DNA of 64,000 nt. Origin: Mustelus asterias (Eukaryota). The stretch is taken from contig NC_135818.1 of the NCBI RefSeq assembly GCF_964213995.1, positions 68,262,001-68,326,000 of the forward strand. The letters run 5' to 3'. Under the pieces are notes generated by a model, which saw only the letters and a program-made list of their open reading frames with translations, did no database searches and was not told the DNA's origin. The position numbers and the translations under genes are program-made. Shown here one piece after another: positions 5,278-63,014 of the stretch; position 1 is the first letter of the stretch; every line of letters starts with the position of its first letter.

Positions 5278-5370
5278 CCCCTGATGAAGGGTTATCCAGA
5301 CTGGAAACGTTGGCTCTATTCTCTCTTCACAGATGCTGTCAGACCTGCTGAGGTTTTCCAGCGTTTTTGT
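5278..5370 (+). mobile_element. Penelope-like tail fragment with degenerate hammerhead core
   Basis: CTGATGAAGGGTTATCCAGACTGGAAACGTT followed by ACAGATGCTGTCAGACCTGCTGAG. Related fragments at about 5057-5160, 22455-22595, 30115-30200 and 34245-34350. Confidence 0.55.
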
Positions 5371-29399: not shown

Positions 29400-30470
29400 C
29401 TCAATATCTGTACCGTACAAAAAACTATTAGTTTTCAAAATTTCAGTTGACCCAACAACCACAGCCTTTCAGGGGAAAAAAGTGAGTTCCAGATTTTCAC
29501 TGCCCATTTGGGTGAATAGTCCTGGATGATTTTCCTCCTTAATGGGCTGGCCCTAATTTTAATATGATGCCCTCTTGTTTTGAATTCCCCACCAAAAGAA
29601 ATGAGGTTTTCTGTAGCTATCCTATTGAATACCTTAATTGTTTTAAACACCTTTTTTAGATTACCCTTCAACCTTCTAAACTCAAGGGGATATAAACTGA
29701 ATTCTATCAGTTATAACATCATACTTCCCCACAATAAATTCCACCTGCCATTGCTTTGCCTACACAATTAAGCTGTTCTGATTCCATCTACATAACTTCT
29801 CAATTTACTGCTTCTGTACCCCCTAACATAGTTTCAGCTGCAACTCTTGTTTCCTTCAGCCAAGTCATTAGCATATATGGTGAAAATGTGTGGTCACATA
29901 CAGTTCCTTGGAAAACACCATTTGTCATTACCCTGCCAATCAAAGACAAACCCTTTATATCTCTATTTTGTCTCATATCTTCCCAACCAACTACCAACTG
30001 TGTCACAACCTGACCTACAACTCTATGCACTTTCATTTTTGTCAATCTGCTTATCAAATACCAAGTATAAACATAAAAAGTCAACATTTCAGATTGTTGA
30101 TCCTTGTCAGGTCATCCACATGAAACATTCTTGTTTCTCTCTCCACAGATGGTACCTGACGTGCTGAATGTTTCCAGCACTTTCTGTTATTTCAGATTCT
30201 CAACATTTTTTTGTACCCTTATCAAAGGCTATCTGGTGGTCCAAACGCATAGCATTCACAGGCTCTTCTCCCCTTTCCACAACGCTTCCTCAAAAAAATT
30301 GTAACTGGATAAGCCAAACATAACCTACCCTTCATAAATCCATGCTGACTCTCTGGTCAACTCATACTTGTCCAAATGTTCAGCCATTCTGTCTCTGATG
30401 ATAAGATTCCAGTAACTTTTCCACAACTGATATTAAATTGATGGGTCTATAGTTACATGGTTTCTCCCTC
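29400..30470 (-). mobile_element. Decayed CR1 LINE fragments
   Basis: GEFKTRGHHIKIR and degenerate RT motifs. Confidence 0.7.
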
Positions 30471-33152: not shown

Positions 33153-33382
33153 AACCAAAAGAGAAAATGCTGGAAAATCTCAGCAGGTCTGGCAGCATCT
33201 GTAAGGAGAGAAAAGAGCTGACGTTTCGAGTCCAGATGACCCTTTGTCAAAGCTGATAAAAGGTCGTCTGGACTCGAAACATCAGCTCTTTTCTCTCCTT
33301 ACAGATGCTGCCAGACCTGCTGAGATTTTCCAGCATTTTCTCTTTTGGTTTCAGATACCAGCATCTGCAGCAATTTGCATTT
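33153..33382. mobile_element. Penelope-like element terminus (second family), 97-bp inverted repeat
   Basis: Arms 33153-33249 and 33254-33350 with about 4 mismatches; degenerate hammerhead cores at the centre. Confidence 0.7.
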
Positions 33383-34748
33383 TTAAAAACTAGAATCAGA
33401 ATCATAGAATCCCGACAGTACAGAAGGAGGCCATTCAGCCCATCGGGCCTGCACCAACAATCCCACCCAGACCCTAACACCATAACCCCAAGCATTTACC
33501 CTGCTCATCCCTCTGACACTAAGGGGCAATTTTATAGTCTAATGCATTCTACATATTTGTAAATCTTTTCCCAGTTTGCAATATTAATTGCTCCAAACTG
33601 AGGCACACTGACATAACTGTGCCTTACCCTGGTCCCAGCTTTTAATAACTTCAATGCCAAGCTGAATGCTATTCCCAATATGAACGAGTGCTTTTAGAGG
33701 CACACATTCCTCCCAATGGACAATAATTCTACAGCTATCATTTCATATTAATGCGACAGGTTCTCCTTGTTGGATTGGCAGTATATTTGTACAATTAAAA
33801 ATTACTTGAGTTGGTATTGAGGTGGGCAAGATCTGAAACAGGCACAAATGTACAGTGTGCATGTGAAAAACAGTGTATGAACAAGAATGCTGACAACAAT
33901 CCAGATATGTTGAATGGCAGACAGATTAAGTTATTGTAAAGCCTGATTCAACAGTACCGCAAGAGAAATCTGTGTCTTATCTATCAGCTCCAATCGCAAG
34001 GTCGCCAGTACTGGAATACTTAATTTGACAAAGGAAACAGTCCAGTTAAGTTGCAGGGAAACCATTACGAGAGCAGGAAGGAATCTAGGGGATGGCATGG
34101 CAATTTTCCTGCTCAATTCATGGACCAACTCCAACAGATAAGTGCAGTGGTTTCATGAGCAGAGCAGACATGCATCACATTGCTCCGACTGAGATTTCAG
34201 CTTTACATCCAAGTTGAAACAAAGTATAAAGTGAGGAAAGGTTATCCACCCGAAACATTTAATCTTTTTCTCTCTCCAAAGATGCTGCCTGACCTGCTGA
34301 GTATTTCCTGTTTTTATTTCAGCTTTCCAGCTTCCGCAGTATTTTGCTTTAATATAATACACATACTCATCATTACAGGCAATGTATTTTCTCAAAGCAT
34401 CACAAAAAGCTACCATACTTTTTAAACCGAATAATGTTGGTTTAAAGTTTTCTTATTGCAAGATGAATAAGTTATTTTTAGTACGATTAAGTTATCGTTA
34501 AGTACTTTTGGTTAAACAGTGGTGAATCAGATTCTAAATGTTCCCTATTATAATTTCAATAATAACAACAGCAGCAAAAATAGCTAACACTGCACAGGCT
34601 AAAATCTGTAGGATCTTACTCTGAAAATAAGGATCTGAAATCTAAGCTCCAGATTAACTTGTACTCGGACAAAGGTTCAGTGTTTGTCATTTTAAGGGCA
34701 GTTCTTTTAACAGAGCAGCTACTTTCTCAGCAGAGCACCAAGCCTCAC

Positions 34749-34918
34749 CTTGCATGCTGAGGTGAATCGCTCTTCGCAGATCCGCTTCTTCATCTTCTGT
34801 CTCCATGTGCTGGCGGCTTAACGTCAACGCCCGCTGCAGATTTTCATCATCTTCATCCAGAGCATTTGTAATTGATTTGGACATATCGATTGCTTGTTCC
34901 CAGTCATTGTTCTGTACC
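34749..34918 (-). CDS. ATXN3: Ataxin-3 exon 8 (UIM1 and UIM2: DEDDENLQRALTLSRQ / EDEEADLRRAIHLSMQ)
   Basis: 170 nt, TAG/GTGAGG boundaries, two UIM motifs. Confidence 0.97.
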
Positions 34919-37784: not shown

Positions 37785-38890
37785 TAGATGCACTATTCTA
37801 AGGTCAAGACTGGAATATTTTACTGGGACATAGTAGAAGGACCTTTGTCACATACCCAAATAACTGTTCTGGAATTGCTTGATACTGACAGAGTACCTAA
37901 AATGGAAAGTTTTCTATATGTTGGCATAAAAATCCTTCATCTCCAAAGCTGGGCAGGTTAGGTGGAGATTGGCCATTCTAAATTGCCCCTTAGTGTCAAG
38001 ATGTGTAGGTTAAATGGATTAACCATGGGAAATAGGGTGGAGGAGGAGGCGGCCTGGGGAAGATGTTCTATCAGAGAATCGGTGCCGACGTGATGGGCTG
38101 AATGGCCTCTTCCACACTGTAGGAATTTTATAATCGCAATGATCACTGAATTCATAGCCAAAGAGCTAGAGCAAAAGTAAAAAAGAATGGATTTTATTCA
38201 TTGATATTCTAATTTACTTTGTAATGAGACTGTAGAATTATGTTTGATCCCGAGAAGTTGGTTCTTTTTTAAAAAAATGATATAACTCGAGCCAGCAAAC
38301 TGGGATCTCCACCTTCAAAAGCTCTGATTCAGATTACAATTACAATGTACTCTGCTACTGATGCACGTTCCTGCCTGTTTATTTTTATGGCCAATTTCTT
38401 TCCCACCTCACTTCCAAAAGAGTTAACTCCTTGCTGGGTTATGGCTGCACAGCCACAAATCACTGTACAGTAGCTTGCTTAAAGTGGCCAGTCTCTTACA
38501 TGCAATGCTAAATGGCAAAGTGTTCGCAGGCCATTTGATCGTGAAGGTATCACAGAAGGTTTTACGTTTAGAGTAGGTGACTTCTATAATGCAACTTGAA
38601 GAACACTCTTTCCCTCCAGCTTAAGATATCGTACTCTTAAGAATCAAAACATCTATTTGGTGCTGTGTGTGTCCCGAAATGCAAATCTTTCAGTCCTCAT
38701 TTCCAATGTAAGACCTGTGAGCTACCAATAATCTCCATCAACTCTGAAAGAACACCTGGAGGCTTTATTGTCTATAAAACTGCACCTTAGAATCATCAGA
38801 GAACTTTCCCCATTTATCTTACCTAATTAGTTAGGATTTTATTTTTCATTAATAATGAACTAAGTTGTTAGGATATTAATCAAGGGATAC

Positions 38891-38978
38891 CTTCTTGCTG
38901 TAACTGAGCCAAGAAGAGGGCGAGGTAAGTGTCGGAGATCAACTCTGGACCCGTCAATAAAGAATTCAGGTTAAACCA
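38891..38978 (-). CDS. ATXN3: Ataxin-3 exon 6 (WFNLNSLLTGPELISDTYLALFLAQLQQE)
   Basis: 88 nt, CAG/GTATCC boundaries; catalytic Asn134. Confidence 0.98.
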
Positions 38979-39929
38979 CTGGACAGAAAAAAGAAAGCAC
39001 AAGTTATGCATTCCATCTATGAAATGTGCATTGGAAAGATTCATTCTGTGCTGTAGCCATTTTGTGACAACATTCGCATTCACTTGTTTTTCAAGTACAT
39101 CCGAACTTCTTTGCTTATTCATTATCTCCTGTCAGAAAATATGAGGAAGAGTGTCACCTAGTGGACAAGCTCTGGTTAAACAGCCTGTTGTTATCATTTC
39201 CAGGTTTAGGAAAGTTAAAGGAAACCACGACACCACAGCGATCAAGGCCGAGGTTGTTAACTCAGCAGCGGGGACCGAACCGGAAATCTTCCTAATCTGA
39301 ATGGCGCAAGGGTCCAAAACGCATTAAATCTACCAGCTGAGGTTGTGGAGGCAGGAAATTTAACTTTATCCAGATATTTTAATAGGTCGTGTTTTTTTGC
39401 GCAAAACGTCAATTTTTCCAATTCATAAATGTAGCCCTGCAAACATCATGGAACTATAATCACAGTGTAAAGTTAGGCTCTCTTACATTTAATGACTCGT
39501 ATTTATGAAGCACCTTTAACACAGAAAAACATCCCATGCTGCTTCACAGTGATGCTGGGCCAAAGAAGGATCGACCAAAGGAGCGGTCAATGGAAAATGA
39601 AATGGAAACGTTTAGGAAGGGCAGATGACAACATCTCAGCAGCTGAAGGCTTAGTTGTTAATTCTGGGGGGGGAGAAAGGAAGAGAGAGAACGGGTATTA
39701 AGCATGGAGAGAGTTGATGGTGTATGGCTGCAGAAACGTGGTGATGGAAGGCCATGAAGGAGCTTAAACAGGAGGATGAGAATTGTGAATTTGAGACAGT
39801 CAACACAGGTCAGCAGCAACATGGATAATTGGGTAAGTGAAACTTGGTACAGAATGTCAACTTAAACGTGAATGGGGGGGTGGTTATGATCGGTGTTTGC
39901 AGGTGTGGTAAAAAGAGAGGACAATATAG

Positions 39930-41345: not shown

Positions 41346-41732
41346 AAAAGAAGAATCCCGATCCCAGTCGGAAAAGGCACCAGCGACTGAACCGTAAAAA
41401 TAATGCAACCAATTGTGTAGCAATAGTTTTAAAATGAGTTCTTGAAAAGCAAACCAAATCTGTTGTGGACTTTCTTTTTCTCTCCAGGTGAAGCTATTTT
41501 TAAAAAATGAGAAACGCTGAAACAGAAAAAAAAAATGCAACTAAGGAGCCGTACAGCAAATCTAACAAACTGAATCGGTGGAGTGCAGCAGGGTAATTTT
41601 TAAGGTTGAATAGAGAGGTGAAACGACTGTGGGAAATGGGGGAAAGATTTTGCAAATGGAATGCTGCAAGTCTTTTGTGGAGATGAGGTTCAGAATTCCA
41701 TTGCAGCTCTTTAATGTTAAAGAGTGAACTAC

Positions 41733-41799
41733 CTGATTTCCTAATTTTCGCACTGTAAACCAATGTTCTTTGTAGTTGCATATAAAAGCCCTTTCAATT
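41733..41799 (-). CDS. ATXN3: Ataxin-3 exon 5 (IERAFICNYKEHWFTVRKLGNQ)
   Basis: 67 nt, CAG/GTAGTT boundaries; catalytic His119 in EHWF. Confidence 0.97.
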
Positions 41800-42041: not shown

Positions 42042-42127
42042 ACTGGATCAATCCTTAATCGCTGATATTCTGGGCTGTTGAAGAGGGTAATCTCTAAACA
42101 CCAAACACTCAAGGCAGTACTAATCAC
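42042..42127 (-). CDS. ATXN3: Ataxin-3 exon 4 (VISTALSVWCLEITLFNSPEYQRLRIDPV)
   Basis: 86 nt, CAG/GTAAGA boundaries. Confidence 0.97.
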
Positions 42128-42337
42128 CTGTAGAAATAAAATTGCTTTGAAAGCTCTTTGGATTTTACAACAATACAGTAGAACCCACTTAAAATACGTA
42201 ATTTGAAAAGCAACATCTGGTTTTAACACATGCAAAAGTCTGTGCACTAACTGTAAGACATGCTTCATCAAGGGGCTATTACTTTCATTTTCTTGCAATG
42301 TATTACTTCTTCCTTCCCTCAACCAATTAGGAGTTCG

Positions 42338-42552
42338 TGATGTGGCGGTGCCGGCGTTGGACTGGGGTGGGCACAGTAAGAAGTGTCACAACACCAGGTT
42401 AAAGTCCGACAGATTTATTTGGAATCACGAGCTTTCGGAGCGCTGCTCCTTCATCAGGTGATCATCACTCACCTGATGAAGGAGCAGCGCTCCGAAAGTT
42501 TGAGATACCAAATAAACCTGCTGGACTTTAACCTGGTGTTGTGAGGCTTCTT
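42338..42552. mobile_element. Penelope-like element terminus arranged as an inverted repeat
   Basis: Arms at about 42378-42461 and 42469-42552, each with a hammerhead core; same family as 62801-63014 and 46060-46099. Confidence 0.7.
42423..42463 (-). ncRNA. Minimal type I hammerhead ribozyme motif (Penelope-associated)
   Basis: GAUCAC-CUGAUGA-A-GGAGC-AGC-GCUCC-GAAA-GCUC-GUGAUU: intact core, 5-bp stem II, palindromic AGCU stem III, CUC cleavage triplet. Confidence 0.7.
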
Positions 42553-44691
42553 TTTAGGAGTTGAGTATTTGCAGTTATTTTCCCAATGGAAATAACCAGG
42601 GTGCAATGGATTGTTTCTACTTGGGCTGTAGTTCTTTATATTATCTTGTGCAACTACTCTATTGTATACAGTGTAACGAACAGGGAATTGCATTTTTAAA
42701 AACTCAATGTTCGCACAAAACGTTTGTTAACGGTCCCACAAAGTGTCATGTAATTTTCACATCATGTTTACAATACTCGGCAAAATTCCCTTTTGCAAGC
42801 TTGCAATAACAAAATCAGAATAAAAGTGGGCCATTCAGTCCCTGAAGCCCGTCTGCTATTCAATCAGATTATGGTTGATCTGACATTCCTTGACACCCTT
42901 ACTGTGAATCGGTGGCTTGATCATTTCTGTTGATCCAACATTCACACCATTGGTGGGTGTGGTGGGGAGGAGGAAAGAATTCTAGATTGCCTTTAGCCTG
43001 TGTGTGAAAAAGTACTTTGTGATTTCACTCCAAAATGGTGTAACTCCTTGTTCTGGATTCCCTCACCCGAGGTAAATGGCTTATGTATCTAACTTACGGA
43101 ATTATTTTACTATATTTAGGGTGATCTTAAATTGAGTCCTCTTCTCTATCAATTTTTTTCATGTCTTATTGATCAAAGAATATTAACATGGCAAGATCCA
43201 ACTTAATCCACAAAGAGGAGGAGGGAGCTGGGGAGGGGGAAATTATTCTAAAGATTGGATGCCTTCTGGAGTATTATTTGATTGCTTTAGGAAATCCGGA
43301 CAGGAATTCCCCAAATTTCCCATTCCTCCATCAATTGTAGTTCCCCGCCCATTCAACATGCTTTGGCAATAGAGGGATTGTTCAGAGCTTTCTATCTTGT
43401 ACTGAGTTGTCCATGTTAGTAAATTTGCAATGACAAAAGAAACTGATCAGAAAGGGTGAGGGTAGCTTTTGCAATTAGTTTTCAGAATTTTGCACAGGTT
43501 ATCAACTGACACTGAGAGCTGGCAACTAACCAATTCAGGAATGATTTTCCAGCTGATTTTCCCATCTTTTGGCACTATTCTAAAGCAATATGTCTATAAC
43601 AGGAAATTCAGTGAAATGAGATGGGGAAGAACAAGCATTTGCTCTATCACTGCACGATGATGATGGTGCTATATTGCCAATATATTGTACTATTCAAACA
43701 TTCAGCTCCTTCATTAACAATCTAATCTGGCGATTCATCTGGCAAAGAGAATAAACACAAAAATGAACTAAAATTTATTTAGCTTCTGCCTCCATCTTAA
43801 GTTATTTTAATTGACAAATTATATAAAATGTTAATGCATAATAGCTAAGGAGATGGAGTGCATTTTTCTGATCATACTTGGTTATGGCCAAGTTTGGCTA
43901 ATGTCCATTTCTCACTCCCAAAAATATGCATGTACATTAAAGTACATTTGAGAGCAATGCTTTTGCAATTATCAATGGGGCAATCAGGCACATAACTGAA
44001 AATGCCAAAACTGCTATTTATTTAATCACTACCTTCAAATATTGCCTCCCCACAGGACAAGTGCATTCTCTTGATTTCCTCAGAAGCTAACATTGTTAAT
44101 TTGAGAGTTGTTGTGGCGTCGAGGCAACCTTGAAAATTACTGGTAGCCTCTTCATGCCTACCATCATTCGCAATCACATCCAATTTCAGCTGTAGTATTA
44201 CCCCTCCCCCACCCCCTTCAATTCTCTGATGGTTATCCTCCTTTAGATTAGCCATCAGCTGTGTTAATGGTAGAGGTACTTTGGCACTGATAACTAGGGG
44301 CAGGAATTCAAATATCCTGAAAATTCCAATCGTGCACATTTTCCTATACTAAAAACAGTGTATGCTGATGGTATGTAGATGAAATAGTTGCAGAACTGAC
44401 TTACAAACAACATGGAGAAAATGACTGAGAAAGCCAGATTAGAAATTAAAATGAGAAGTAAAAAGCAAAGGATGACAGTGTAGATGAGCAATGGGAAAAG
44501 AACAAATCAAACTATCCAATTAAATGTCGCCTGCTATGTCTACTATGACTTGATTGTCTTATTTAACAACTCCAAGGGTAAAGAAAAAATAATCGGTTCA
44601 TATCACTTTCGAAGGAGGGGAGAGGGCAAGAAAAAATAAAAAGTTTATTGCTAGATACAATGGATTTATAGGCTTAAATTCAGACACTTAC

Positions 44692-44736
44692 TTGAATTGA
44701 AAAGAATCCACTATCATCCATGTTTCCCGAAGGTTG
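44692..44736 (-). CDS. ATXN3: Ataxin-3 exon 3 (QPSGNMDDSGFFSIQ)
   Basis: 45 nt, AG/GTAAGT boundaries, conserved Josephin peptide. Confidence 0.97.
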
Positions 44737-45148: not shown

Positions 45149-45313
45149 CTGTAAAAATATTCTATATTCCTCTGTGGTAGTTCCTCCCTCTGCCATTCTT
45201 TCTCGCTCCTCGTCATCCAACTGCTGTGCAATTGTAGAGAGGTCTATAGGGCTAAAGTATTCTCCCTGCAACAAATTGTTGAGGCAATGCTGAGCACAGA
45301 GGGATCCTTCTTG
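45149..45313 (-). CDS. ATXN3: Ataxin-3 exon 2 (QEGSLCAQHCLNNLLQGEYFSPIDLSTIAQQLDDEERERMAEGGTTTEEYRIFLQ)
   Basis: 165 nt, TAG acceptor and GTAAAA donor; contains catalytic Cys14. Confidence 0.98.
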
Positions 45314-45999: not shown

Positions 46000-47170
46000 A
46001 ACAGTAGCACAATGTTAATGTCACTGGATTAGTAATCCAGAGGTCTGGACTAACGCTCCTGTTGGACTTTAACCTGGTGTTGTGAGACTTCTTACTGTGC
46101 TAACGCTCCAGAGACAGGAGTTCAAATCCCACCACAGCAGCTGGTGGAACTAAACTTCAATTAATAACAAACCTGGAATAAAAAGGTTAGTCTTTGTAAT
46201 GATGGTCACAAAGTTACCGGATTATTTTTTTTAAAACCCATCTGGTTCACCAATTATCTTTAGGGAAGGAAACCTGCCGTCTTTACTTGGGCGAACTTCA
46301 CGTGTGATTGCAGGCCCACAGCTGATTTTTAACTACTCTCTGAAATGGCCAAACAAGTCTCTCAGTTCTGTCAAACCACTTCAGAGAAGTCAAAAATGCT
46401 GGATGGACCACCTGGCACAGGAAATGACAGAAGATGCAACCTGCAATCACCTCCTTGTTAACAGCTAGAAACTTGTACCAAAGATGTGCGGGTTAGGTTG
46501 ATTGGCCAGGTTAAAAATTGCCCCTTAGAGTCCTGAGATGCGTAAGTTAGAAGGATTAGCGGGTAAATATGTGGGGGTAGGGCCTGGGAGGGATTGTGGT
46601 CGGTGCAGACTCGATGGGCCGAATGGCCTCCTTCTGCACTGTAGGGTTTCTATGATGATTAACAGAGCTGTCCCACAGACTAGTAAAGCAAAAGCCTCAC
46701 ACTCATGAACCATACCTTTCAGCTAGTGTCCCAGACACCACCAACACTATCCCTGTGTTGCCCTGACCTACAGGCAGGCCAGACCCACTAGAGGTTTACA
46801 GTCAGGAAGGAGTAACCCTGCGAGTCCCAAAGTTGAGTCTAGATCCCATGAAGTCTCATGGTATCAGGTCAAACATCCTGCTAAATACCATTTGCAGTTC
46901 TCCTTCAATCAATGAATCACTACTCCTCCATGTGGAACACCACTTGGAAAAAGCACTGAGAGTAGCAAGGCCGCAGAATGTATTCTGGCTGAGCGACTTC
47001 ATTATCCATCACCAAAAGTGGCTTGGTAGCACCATAAGTGAGAGAACTGGCCAAGCCCTGAAGGACATGTCTGCCATACTGGGCCTGCATCATGTTAGAA
47101 AGAAACCATGAGGAAAAATCCTACTTGATCTCACCCAGAGCAATCCACTGTTGCAGATGTACAGCTGTGA
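46000..47170 (+). mobile_element. LINE 5' part with tRNA-like head and AP-endonuclease remnant, with nested insertions
   Basis: Box-B-like GGAGTTCAAATCCC at about 46117; ORF remnant LHVEHHLEKALRVARPQNVFWLSDFIIHH (GDFN-like). Confidence 0.6.
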
Positions 47171-52479: not shown

Positions 52480-53040
52480 CGGGGGACGTCTGCAGCTTTC
52501 TCTTCAGATGTGGGGGCGGGGGACATTAATCGCACCTCGACCGCCAGAGCTGCGACATACCCCCGTGGGCAAACTGAATTCAATGTGATTATTGTGCCGG
52601 AGCTGAGCTATGGGCGGGGTGGTGGGGGAGAGGAAATGCAGCTGCCAGGGCTGCGAACCCTGTGGCGCTGGCGGCCAACGGGCTGTGTGTGAAGTACCCC
52701 GCCCCGGAAGGTGAAGGAAAGGGGAAAGGAAGGTTTGAAGCAACTCGACATCAGTCGGCACGGGGCCTCTCTCCCGCCGCCACGGCCATTTTAAACCGCA
52801 GTCGCCGCTTCCACCTACTTTCTCGTGAAATATCGCCTCCATGATGGATACTGGACCATCATCCTGTGCGCCGTGACCCCCACCGCCGCCGGGGGTCAAA
52901 GCCGCGAACCAATCACCGGCCGGGACGCTACACGCATGCGGGCGCCGTGCCGGCGACGTAAACAGTCGGAGCAGCGGGCGGTTGCTCCCTGAGGGACACC
53001 GAGTGCCGTCAGAGCGGGAGGGCTGCCCCTCTCTGTGTGG
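52480..53040 (-). promoter_or_regulatory. CpG island promoter of ATXN3
   Basis: GC/CpG-rich around exon 1; CCAAT box at about 52909, NRF1-like CGCATGCG at 52933-52940, YY1-like GCCATTTT at 52785-52792, ETS CCGGAAG at about 52704. Confidence 0.85.
52819..52842 (-). CDS. ATXN3: Ataxin-3 exon 1 (MEAIFHEK)
   Basis: ATG GAG GCG ATA TTT CAC GAG AAA then donor GTAGGT, inside a CpG island; matches vertebrate MESIFHEK. Confidence 0.96.
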
Positions 53041-62384: not shown

Positions 62385-62800
62385 CATTCATAAAAGTTTG
62401 TTATTCCTTTTTGTCATGATTAAAATGAAAACCTTTTCAGTAGAACACAAGAACACCCAGACCAAATTTGTATCATATTCTTGGAAAAAGCAACCAGTAT
62501 GGGGCAGGATTCCTAATAACTCACCACAAGAGTTGTTAACCGTTGTTAACCGTAGAATTCGAATTTGTCCCTCAAATTGATCTATGTGGTACAATGGGAC
62601 TTGGTATACAAACTGATTTAAAACTCCTAGCTGTTAGGAGGTTGGAGTGAAATAAAAAGTAAAGAATTGGATTAAAAAAAGAAACTGATAGGGATTTTGC
62701 CATAGTGAGCACTTGAGATGCGGATTAGCTTAGTAACAGGGTTAAACTGATGCTTGGTTAAGCAGAGTGGAGATGTGCAGTCTCGTAGTCTCAGGGAAGC

Positions 62801-63014
62801 CATGATGTGGAGATGCTGGTGTTGGACTGGACTGGACACAGTAAGAAGTCTCACGACACCAGGTTAAAATTCAGCAGGTTTATTTGGAATCACGAGCTTT
62901 CGGAGCAGTGCGCCGAAAGCTCATGATTCATCTGATGAAGGAGCAGCGCTCTGAAAGCTCATGATTCCAAATAAATCTGTTAGGCTTTAACCTGGTACTG
63001 TGAGACTCCTTACT
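62801..63014. mobile_element. Penelope-like element terminus arranged as an inverted repeat
   Basis: Same sequence family and architecture as 42338-42552. Confidence 0.7.
62928..62964 (+). ncRNA. Minimal type I hammerhead ribozyme motif (Penelope-associated)
   Basis: UCAU-CUGAUGA-A-GGAGC-AGC-GCUCU-GAAA-GCUC-AUGA; 4-bp stem I, core intact. Confidence 0.65.

Follow-up and report, generated by a model that had tools for sequence, protein, structure and literature searches.

A minimal hammerhead motif in intron 3 of a shark ATXN3 gene is very probably a passenger of a Penelope-like element insertion and likely inert

The hammerhead motif described here is very probably the passenger ribozyme of a head-to-head insertion of a Penelope-like element (PLE). 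With a length of 218 bp and a target-site duplication on its flanks, this insertion would lock the ribozyme in an 84-bp hairpin, where it is likely inert. The evidence for this origin comprises the boundaries, the duplication, a one-sided tail, the copy number, the link of the repeat family to RT and GIY-YIG coding sequence, and the presence of the insertion in four other DNA runs. Because the motif is one of over 50,000 copies and is predicted to be zipped into the hairpin, it is likely an ordinary inert leftover and not a control switch. All positions refer to the window, that is, the whole stretch of 64,000 nucleotides of Mustelus asterias DNA that was analysed; published systems are compared on the basis of parts of the cited papers. 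The features of the locus are:

42042..42127, minus strand: ATXN3 exon 4, 86 nt, with AG/GT borders and a translation that lies between Josephin-matching exons
42128-44691, minus strand: ATXN3 intron 3
42327..42335, no strand: target-site duplication, left copy, 9 bp (same 9-mer at both insertion ends)
42336..42377, minus strand: PLE tail, a one-sided extension of ~40 nt that stops where the element has its ATG (it runs into the ORF start in L043-L062)
42378..42461, minus strand: arm A, a 5'-truncated pLTR piece, sense to the ATXN3 pre-mRNA
42423..42463, minus strand: minimal type I hammerhead motif, C3 at 42457, predicted cut 42429/42428
42462..42465, no strand: junction, four bases between the arms without a match to the element (blastn limits 42461 and 42466 against L054 and L065)
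42466..42553, plus strand: arm B, an inverted, tail-less pLTR piece in which hammerhead stems III and I are broken
42467..42475, minus strand: consensus 5' splice-site-like 9-mer, boundary 42473/42472, antisense of arm B
42554..42562, no strand: target-site duplication, right copy, 9 bp (same 9-mer at both insertion ends)
44692..44736, minus strand: ATXN3 exon 3, 45 nt, with AG/GT borders

The host gene lies on the minus strand, which makes the motif sense to its pre-mRNA, as an earlier, sequence-only reading of this DNA had stated. Matches to the Josephin domain (PF02099) were found at 45149-45313, 41730-41795 and 38877-38990, two of the three above the cut-off, and UIM-like repeats lie near 34800, downstream in the gene; exon 4 alone gave no match in a Pfam search. 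From the Josephin matches together with the UIMs we take the gene to be ATXN3, and its exons are numbered as in the human gene. Since coding starts at 52842 and further exons lie at 45149-45313, 44692-44736 and 42042-42127, the motif falls in intron 3. The distance from the predicted cut to the exon 4 acceptor, previously put at about 300 nt, was measured as 301 nt. The same intron holds an additional low-copy repeat at 42825-42898, whose depth was raised in four of four shark DNA runs.

Read from 42463 to 42423 on the minus strand, the letters of the motif agree with the earlier reading and give a complete minimal core: CUGAUGA, GAAA and UC, which conform to the CUGANGA, GAAA and UH of minimal hammerheads. 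The extra A that had been noticed is there, as a base between positions 9 and 10.1. The pair G10.1-C11.1 is present, stem II has 5 bp and a 3-nt loop, and stem III is a loop-less palindrome, AGCU, at 15.2-16.2. Counting from the 5' G at 42463 puts C17 at 42429, and the predicted cut therefore falls between 42429 and 42428 of the minus strand, exactly where it had been placed. The proposed 6-bp stem I stands only in part: six pairs can be drawn at the locus, but the outer two are formed by junction bases and do not belong to the family. A comparison of family copies gave a stem I of four pairs and then a mismatch.

In its sequence, the motif has every feature of the minimal PLE hammerheads. In the parts of PMC4209133 (Cervera and De la Pena 2014) considered here, these features are the core, the extra base between 9 and 10.1, G10.1-C11.1, the loop-less palindromic 15.2-16.2 and a short helix I; sharks are not named in those parts, and the 5-bp stem II is a further difference. 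No hammerhead match was returned by an Rfam search of the window at E <= 5. The 34-nt core has 2,025 exact matches in the genome against 0 for the reversed control, so that the motif is not a product of chance.

The boundaries of the insertion had to be revised. Its extent had been given as 42378..42552 (175 bp), which is too short: the ribozyme arm runs on for ~40 nt to the start-codon position of the element and matches family copies down to 42336, and the insertion therefore measures 218 bp (42336-42553). The inverted repeat of about 84 bp was described correctly, with arms of 84 nt at 42378-42461 and 42469-42552 that are 89% complementary. Arm A begins 4 bases before C3 and arm B 7 bases before it; the complement of arm B comes first in the ATXN3 pre-mRNA. 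Over 125 nt, arm A and the tail differ at 6 positions from the majority of same-length copies. Arm B carries three differing positions around its own cut site, which break both stem III and stem I; the mutated stem III had been recognised, whereas the loss of stem I had not.

The insertion has the structural features of an EN+ PLE insertion, namely an inverted 5'-truncated copy, a one-sided tail and a target-site duplication. Inverted arms, one-sided tail and duplication are the layout described for EN+ PLEs in the relevant parts of PMC3846280 and PMC8557442. The likeness to Pen2a_Av (PMC3846280) and to the EN+ PLE scheme (PMC8557442) extends to the head-to-head arms, a one-sided tail of 30-40 nt, the 9-bp duplication, and a TATA plus Inr-like motif in the pLTR. 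In contrast to Pen2a_Av, as described there, the arms at the locus are only ~85-125 nt long and contain no ORF.

To identify the element, seven longer stretches of the family were examined for full units. The sequence-only reading had let its PLE assignment hang on a link between the repeat family and Penelope-type ORFs, and that link was found: the family is joined to RT and GIY-YIG coding sequence, and the motif is of the PLE type. Upstream of the ribozyme, longer copies contain the end of a coding region with two cysteines inside a GIY-YIG-like core and CX4CxxC before the core; downstream, the tail leads directly into an ATG and a long reading frame. One stretch (L065) contains a colinear 3.1-kb pLTR-ORF-pLTR unit with a ribozyme motif at each end, 3,018 bp apart, and in a similar unit (L063) ribozyme motifs flank the ORF. 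Every longer copy examined has stops or frameshifts.

RT pieces from L066 and L064 scored 32.8 and 39.4 bits, above the Pfam PF00078 cut-off of 29.6. A Pfam search with the endonuclease pieces gave no match, and the endonuclease call accordingly rests on motifs: in L064 and in L041/L069, two cysteines lie between the GIY-YIG halves and are followed by R, H, H, E and N. Read against the GIY-YIG CCHH features listed for EN+ PLEs in the parts of PMC8557442 considered here, the endonuclease would be a GIY-YIG enzyme with CCHH. Several copies have a CX4CxxC linker before EN, which fits the CX2-5CxxC linker between RT and EN that is tied there to the Neptune and Nematis clades; in this the shark family is unlike Poseidon. 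The 95 homologues of the element protein are mostly unnamed or uncharacterised, the named ones come from sharks, and no GIY-YIG name occurs among them. The best named relatives of the ORF, from sharks, share 87-90% identity with it. A PDB sequence search with an RT piece produced no useful match.

Two side observations concern the coding region. L064 (G000:C1322:45500-52700) holds a near-full element, ahead of which 1.3 kb of its 3' part is repeated in inverted orientation; an insertion of ~320 bp interrupts the element, and next to it lies a 624-codon RT frame of CR1-like type. Part of the element's C-terminal region is 59% identical to a shark protein (P0095) that carries the annotation snRNA-activating complex subunit 5, possibly through an exonised element fragment or an annotation slip.

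Copies were counted exactly with genome-wide patterns, each paired with a reversed-pattern control; all four controls gave 0. A degenerate pattern that requires an intact core matched 53,230 times, and a minor fraction of these matches may include a single mismatch in a stem. For one family, this exceeds the ~9,000 in Xenopus and ~4,000 in coelacanth given in the sections of PMC4209133 used here, where the search methods differ. A 22-mer near the 3' end of the element has 90,821 exact matches, and head-to-head junctions in which each arm begins at the edge of the ribozyme, within 30 nt, number 1,779 genome-wide. According to the same sections, PLE hammerheads occur mostly as scattered single motifs from truncated elements, and close pairs on opposite strands had already been noted.

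The window has two more pieces of this family. At 62795-63014 lies a second head-to-head copy with the tail on its left arm; the plus-strand motif has a change in stem II and a C.A mismatch in stem I, and in the minus-strand arm the core is missing its first half. At 46058-46100 (ATXN3 intron 1, plus strand) a 43-nt fragment of the 3' end sits inside another repeat and apparently has its own duplication of ~13 bp. A fold-back of a second repeat family at 33167-33336 carries decayed hammerhead-like cores on both arms, with a different stem III palindrome; pieces of it lie at 2501, 5287-5362, 30134-30179 and 34266-34308. Rfam matches to miRNAs at 33167-33336 were discarded as false, being caused by this other fold-back repeat.

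We then asked how individual copies are built, using 60 stretches with 88 arms taken from among the first 100 of the 22-mer matches listed, a sample chosen only by the 3' 22-mer and therefore blind to 5' extent. Of the 88 arms, 76 end at either of two sites: 40 stop 29-39 nt short of the ATG and 36 are no more than 4 nt away from it, while 12 end elsewhere. The sample contains 15 head-to-head pairs, each made of one tailed and one tail-less arm, and 12 of them are flanked by a duplication of 8-16 bp.

To assess whether the ribozyme at the locus could act, we computed its folding as equilibrium modelling without proteins or A-to-I editing. The inverted repeat folds at -132 kcal/mol (z -19.9), and 0 of 200 shuffles were equally stable. 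In the motif alone, or in arm A without the antisense arm, stems I and II form with a probability of 0.57-1.0. In the whole insertion a perfect 30-bp helix of the fold-back covers the core, all eleven ribozyme pairs have a probability of 0.0 and can be imposed only at a cost of 45.2 kcal/mol. When transcripts of increasing length were folded, the hairpin was already closed with the 3' end at 42452, before the core was complete. The modelling thus bears out the earlier suggestion that the antisense arm, being transcribed first, would block the fold.

A second minus-strand family motif that might serve as stem III partner was sought in the window and none was found. Given a fold probability of about 0 and the absence of a second sense copy from the window, a locked state, and not a switchable one, is likely. 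The antisense arm would pair with the ribozyme during transcription and so prevent the active fold, which would need a second copy, absent here, for stem III. On these models, "switched off" would be right as a description of the state, and nothing suggests switching on. In the parts of PMC4209133 considered, single minimal hammerheads show no cleavage and dimers only low cleavage; PMC6765202, likewise consulted in part, agrees for the minimal motif as monomer and as dimer.

The hairpin might still have a slight effect on ATXN3 RNA by a route other than cleavage, as an editing substrate or through a 5' splice site. We give this a slim chance; it is compatible with an origin as a PLE insertion. 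The stability of the -132 kcal/mol hairpin speaks for it, as does the perfect donor-like 9-mer at 42467-42475, the sole such match on the minus strand in the 22 kb from 30000 to 52000. However, that site is mostly paired in the stem, an upstream acceptor is not part of the evidence, and about 31,000 family copies have the identical 9-mer on their antisense strand, which makes it a family trait. As a side observation, the antisense of the ribozyme's 5' edge reads as a perfect consensus splice donor, a putative one, and may be a source of exonisation in sharks.

Slightly less probable still, and in our judgement very improbable, is that the motif has been domesticated as a regulated self-cleavage site of ATXN3 intron 3, the antisense arm being an off switch that is released by editing, helicases or a partner RNA. 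The core and the CpGs are intact in the sense arm only, and its stem I, at 6 bp, is longer than that of the family. Against this stand the want of a stem III and of a partner in the window, the 45 kcal/mol penalty with the 30-bp perfect helix over the core, and a layout that is the default of the family (15 of 15 pairs).

Selection in the source elements is indicated by the covariation of a stem pair and by the variation at positions 7 and 17. The core was readable in 46 of the 88 sampled arms, where pair 2.1-1.1 is U-A in 23, C-G in 18, U-G in 2 and C.A in 3, position 7 is C in 31, U in 14 and A in 1, and position 17 is U in 23, A in 13, C in 10 and G in 0. Although these tallies count copies, which are inherited states and not independent events, the motif appears from its sequence to vary across subfamilies as a working ribozyme would. 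The inserted copies, by contrast, look neutral in sequence: among 95 same-length arms, 13-26% differ at the CpG positions, one of which is the catalytic G12 with 22%. These arms are the combined yield of several searches, part of them with a bias toward arm A, and their first 13 bases served to select them. A structurally intact motif was found in 32 of the 66 sampled arms that span it. The 36-nt ribozyme part of arm A shows 0 differences, whereas the remaining 89 nt show 6; the chance of so clean a part is about 0.17 (0.952^36, by hand), and 16 of the 95 copies are equally clean. The intactness of arm A is compatible with chance (p about 0.17). A clean arm A beside a broken arm B is nevertheless the direction that selection would give, which slightly favours the regulatory idea.

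The insertion occurs at the same site in four of four other shark DNA runs, from four studies, as seen in single-copy contigs at its ends; these reach 20-27 nt into the element from the left flank and 23-28 nt from the right, and then break off within the repeat. The flanks in these runs have 12-36 other letters per ~460 nt. Common presence in the four runs suggests that the insertion is older than the split of those lineages and, with flanks 12-36 letters apart, that it has been kept for some time, a point that domestication can also claim. Since insertion, the locus copy has likely drifted neutrally.

Conserved intronic hammerheads in amniotes (PMC6155905) also lend domestication some plausibility. 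In the sections of that paper considered here, RECK and the other domesticated hammerheads are, like the shark motif, of type I, in a host intron and sense to the pre-mRNA. They are reported there as highly conserved, whereas the shark motif is a minimal one in a dispersed repeat and is paired with its own antisense. The locus lacks the stable monomer with stem III that RECK-type function calls for, having no stem III loop and a probability of 0.0 in context. Domesticated amniote hammerheads have a canonical stem III and loop contacts. The earlier idea of a special or regulated cleavage site in ATXN3 is not supported: the site is one of tens of thousands, its intactness fits chance, the block is constitutive in the computed folds and the window holds no same-strand partner. 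For ATXN3 the motif probably has no importance, with tens of thousands of such sites and this one predicted to be folded shut. If, against our expectation, the regulatory reading held, it would be the first antisense-locked minimal hammerhead recruited in the orthologue of a disease gene in a vertebrate, for which we see very little prospect. No paper on this shark family or on an ATXN3 hammerhead was found in the literature; supplements, Repbase and Dfam may name the family.

Animal non-LTR retrozymes, reported in one chondrichthyan in the parts of bioRxiv 10.64898/2026.07.22.740005 that were available to us, resemble the locus in deriving from PLE pLTRs and in their type I hammerhead. They consist, as described there, of tandem same-strand units each with a ribozyme, whereas the locus is a single inverted pair with one motif per strand and so falls short of the at least two tandem same-strand units of a retrozyme. 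That the fold-back is itself a non-autonomous element, MITE-like or retrozyme-like, spreading as a unit has almost no probability: 1,779 short head-to-head copies of similar size would suit it, but junction sequences vary from copy to copy, the shortest arms have ~30 nt and the longest over 300 nt, and of the two sides one, and never both, bears the tail, all of which would be expected if each fold-back had been made afresh; the locus also has no tandem same-strand units.

Formation as a PLE insertion can be outlined with the help of PAc (Poseidon of Anolis carolinensis). In the parts of PMC11167929 considered here, the tail results from two adjacent internal RT starts, which explain the pattern of one-tailed pairs and two end sites; cutting and extension on both strands were shown, and ribozyme mutants had no effect on insertion. 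As in PAc, two adjacent element ends define the tail, and copies span the ribozyme, consistent with an unprocessed RNA template. In PAc, according to those parts, the ribozyme contains the start of the ORF, and reverse transcription begins 111-118 nt into that ORF; in the shark family the ATG follows ~125 nt after C3 and the ends lie at the ATG and ~35 nt before it. We infer that the same mechanism applies to the shark insertion. The element protein would have nicked both DNA strands about 9 bp apart, and reverse transcription would have been primed at two neighbouring internal RNA sites, at the ATG and ~35 nt upstream. The two short cDNAs would have ended just beyond the 5' edge of the ribozyme and then been joined head to head.

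The 5' ends of copies were analysed for traces of the transcript start. Among the 88 arms, 19 begin within -12..+2 of C3, compared with 13 that begin in the preceding 47 nt; another 5 start within the motif and 7 in the neighbourhood of the cut site. Genome-wide, 31,101 copies reach the A at -6, and in 5,358 a non-element base (not C) precedes it; 28 of 30 inspected cases were true junctions. At -5, 3,178 more copies have a non-templated neighbour, and a sharp single-base start was therefore rejected. A TATA-like box lies 31-33 nt upstream of the -6 A in 32 of 48 longer copies. This TATA-to-start spacing is as expected for a promoter start. As far as the parts consulted go, a TATA plus Inr-like motif is known from the rotifer pLTR (PMC3846280), and Drosophila Penelope has a TATA-less internal promoter (PMC2377424). 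Of 13 host-joined copies, 7 have a G directly before the -6 A, which is a weak hint of a copied cap, since an untemplated G can mark one (PMC9341517, in the part considered). A G excess before the -6 position (72 of 100 among the matches listed, counted by hand) was discounted as a cap signature, because half of the inspected copies, 15 of 30, lie next to an inverted arm with a G-rich complement. Cleaved RNA was likewise rejected as the main template, with only 7 of 88 5' ends near the cut site and 66 of 88 arms spanning the motif.

We tentatively propose, giving it somewhat less than an even chance, that this stub and thousands alike arose by run-off on element transcripts that were capped and uncut, each copy covering the whole 5' UTR. 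RT would start either at the ATG or ~35 nt upstream and run off at the TATA/Inr start site, which would coincide with the first strand of ribozyme stem I. Alternatively, RT stopping at an RNA structure would explain the clustered 5' ends. If the run-off proposal is right, the shark genome would be a fossil record that places the ribozyme at the cap end, and uncut RNA would be the main template of transposition in vivo. The family, with more than 50,000 ribozyme copies and sharply clustered ends, is more useful than the locus: it opens the role of PLE hammerheads to tests, for which counts in the genome, a map of RNA 5' ends and a single in vitro assay would serve. In the stretches L085-L144 at least three ribozyme subfamilies can be told apart, which differ in stem I pairs, in positions 7 and 17 and in a spacer that follows the cut site and can be longer by 7 nt. 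One subfamily without a TATA-like box still has 5' ends at the ribozyme edge.
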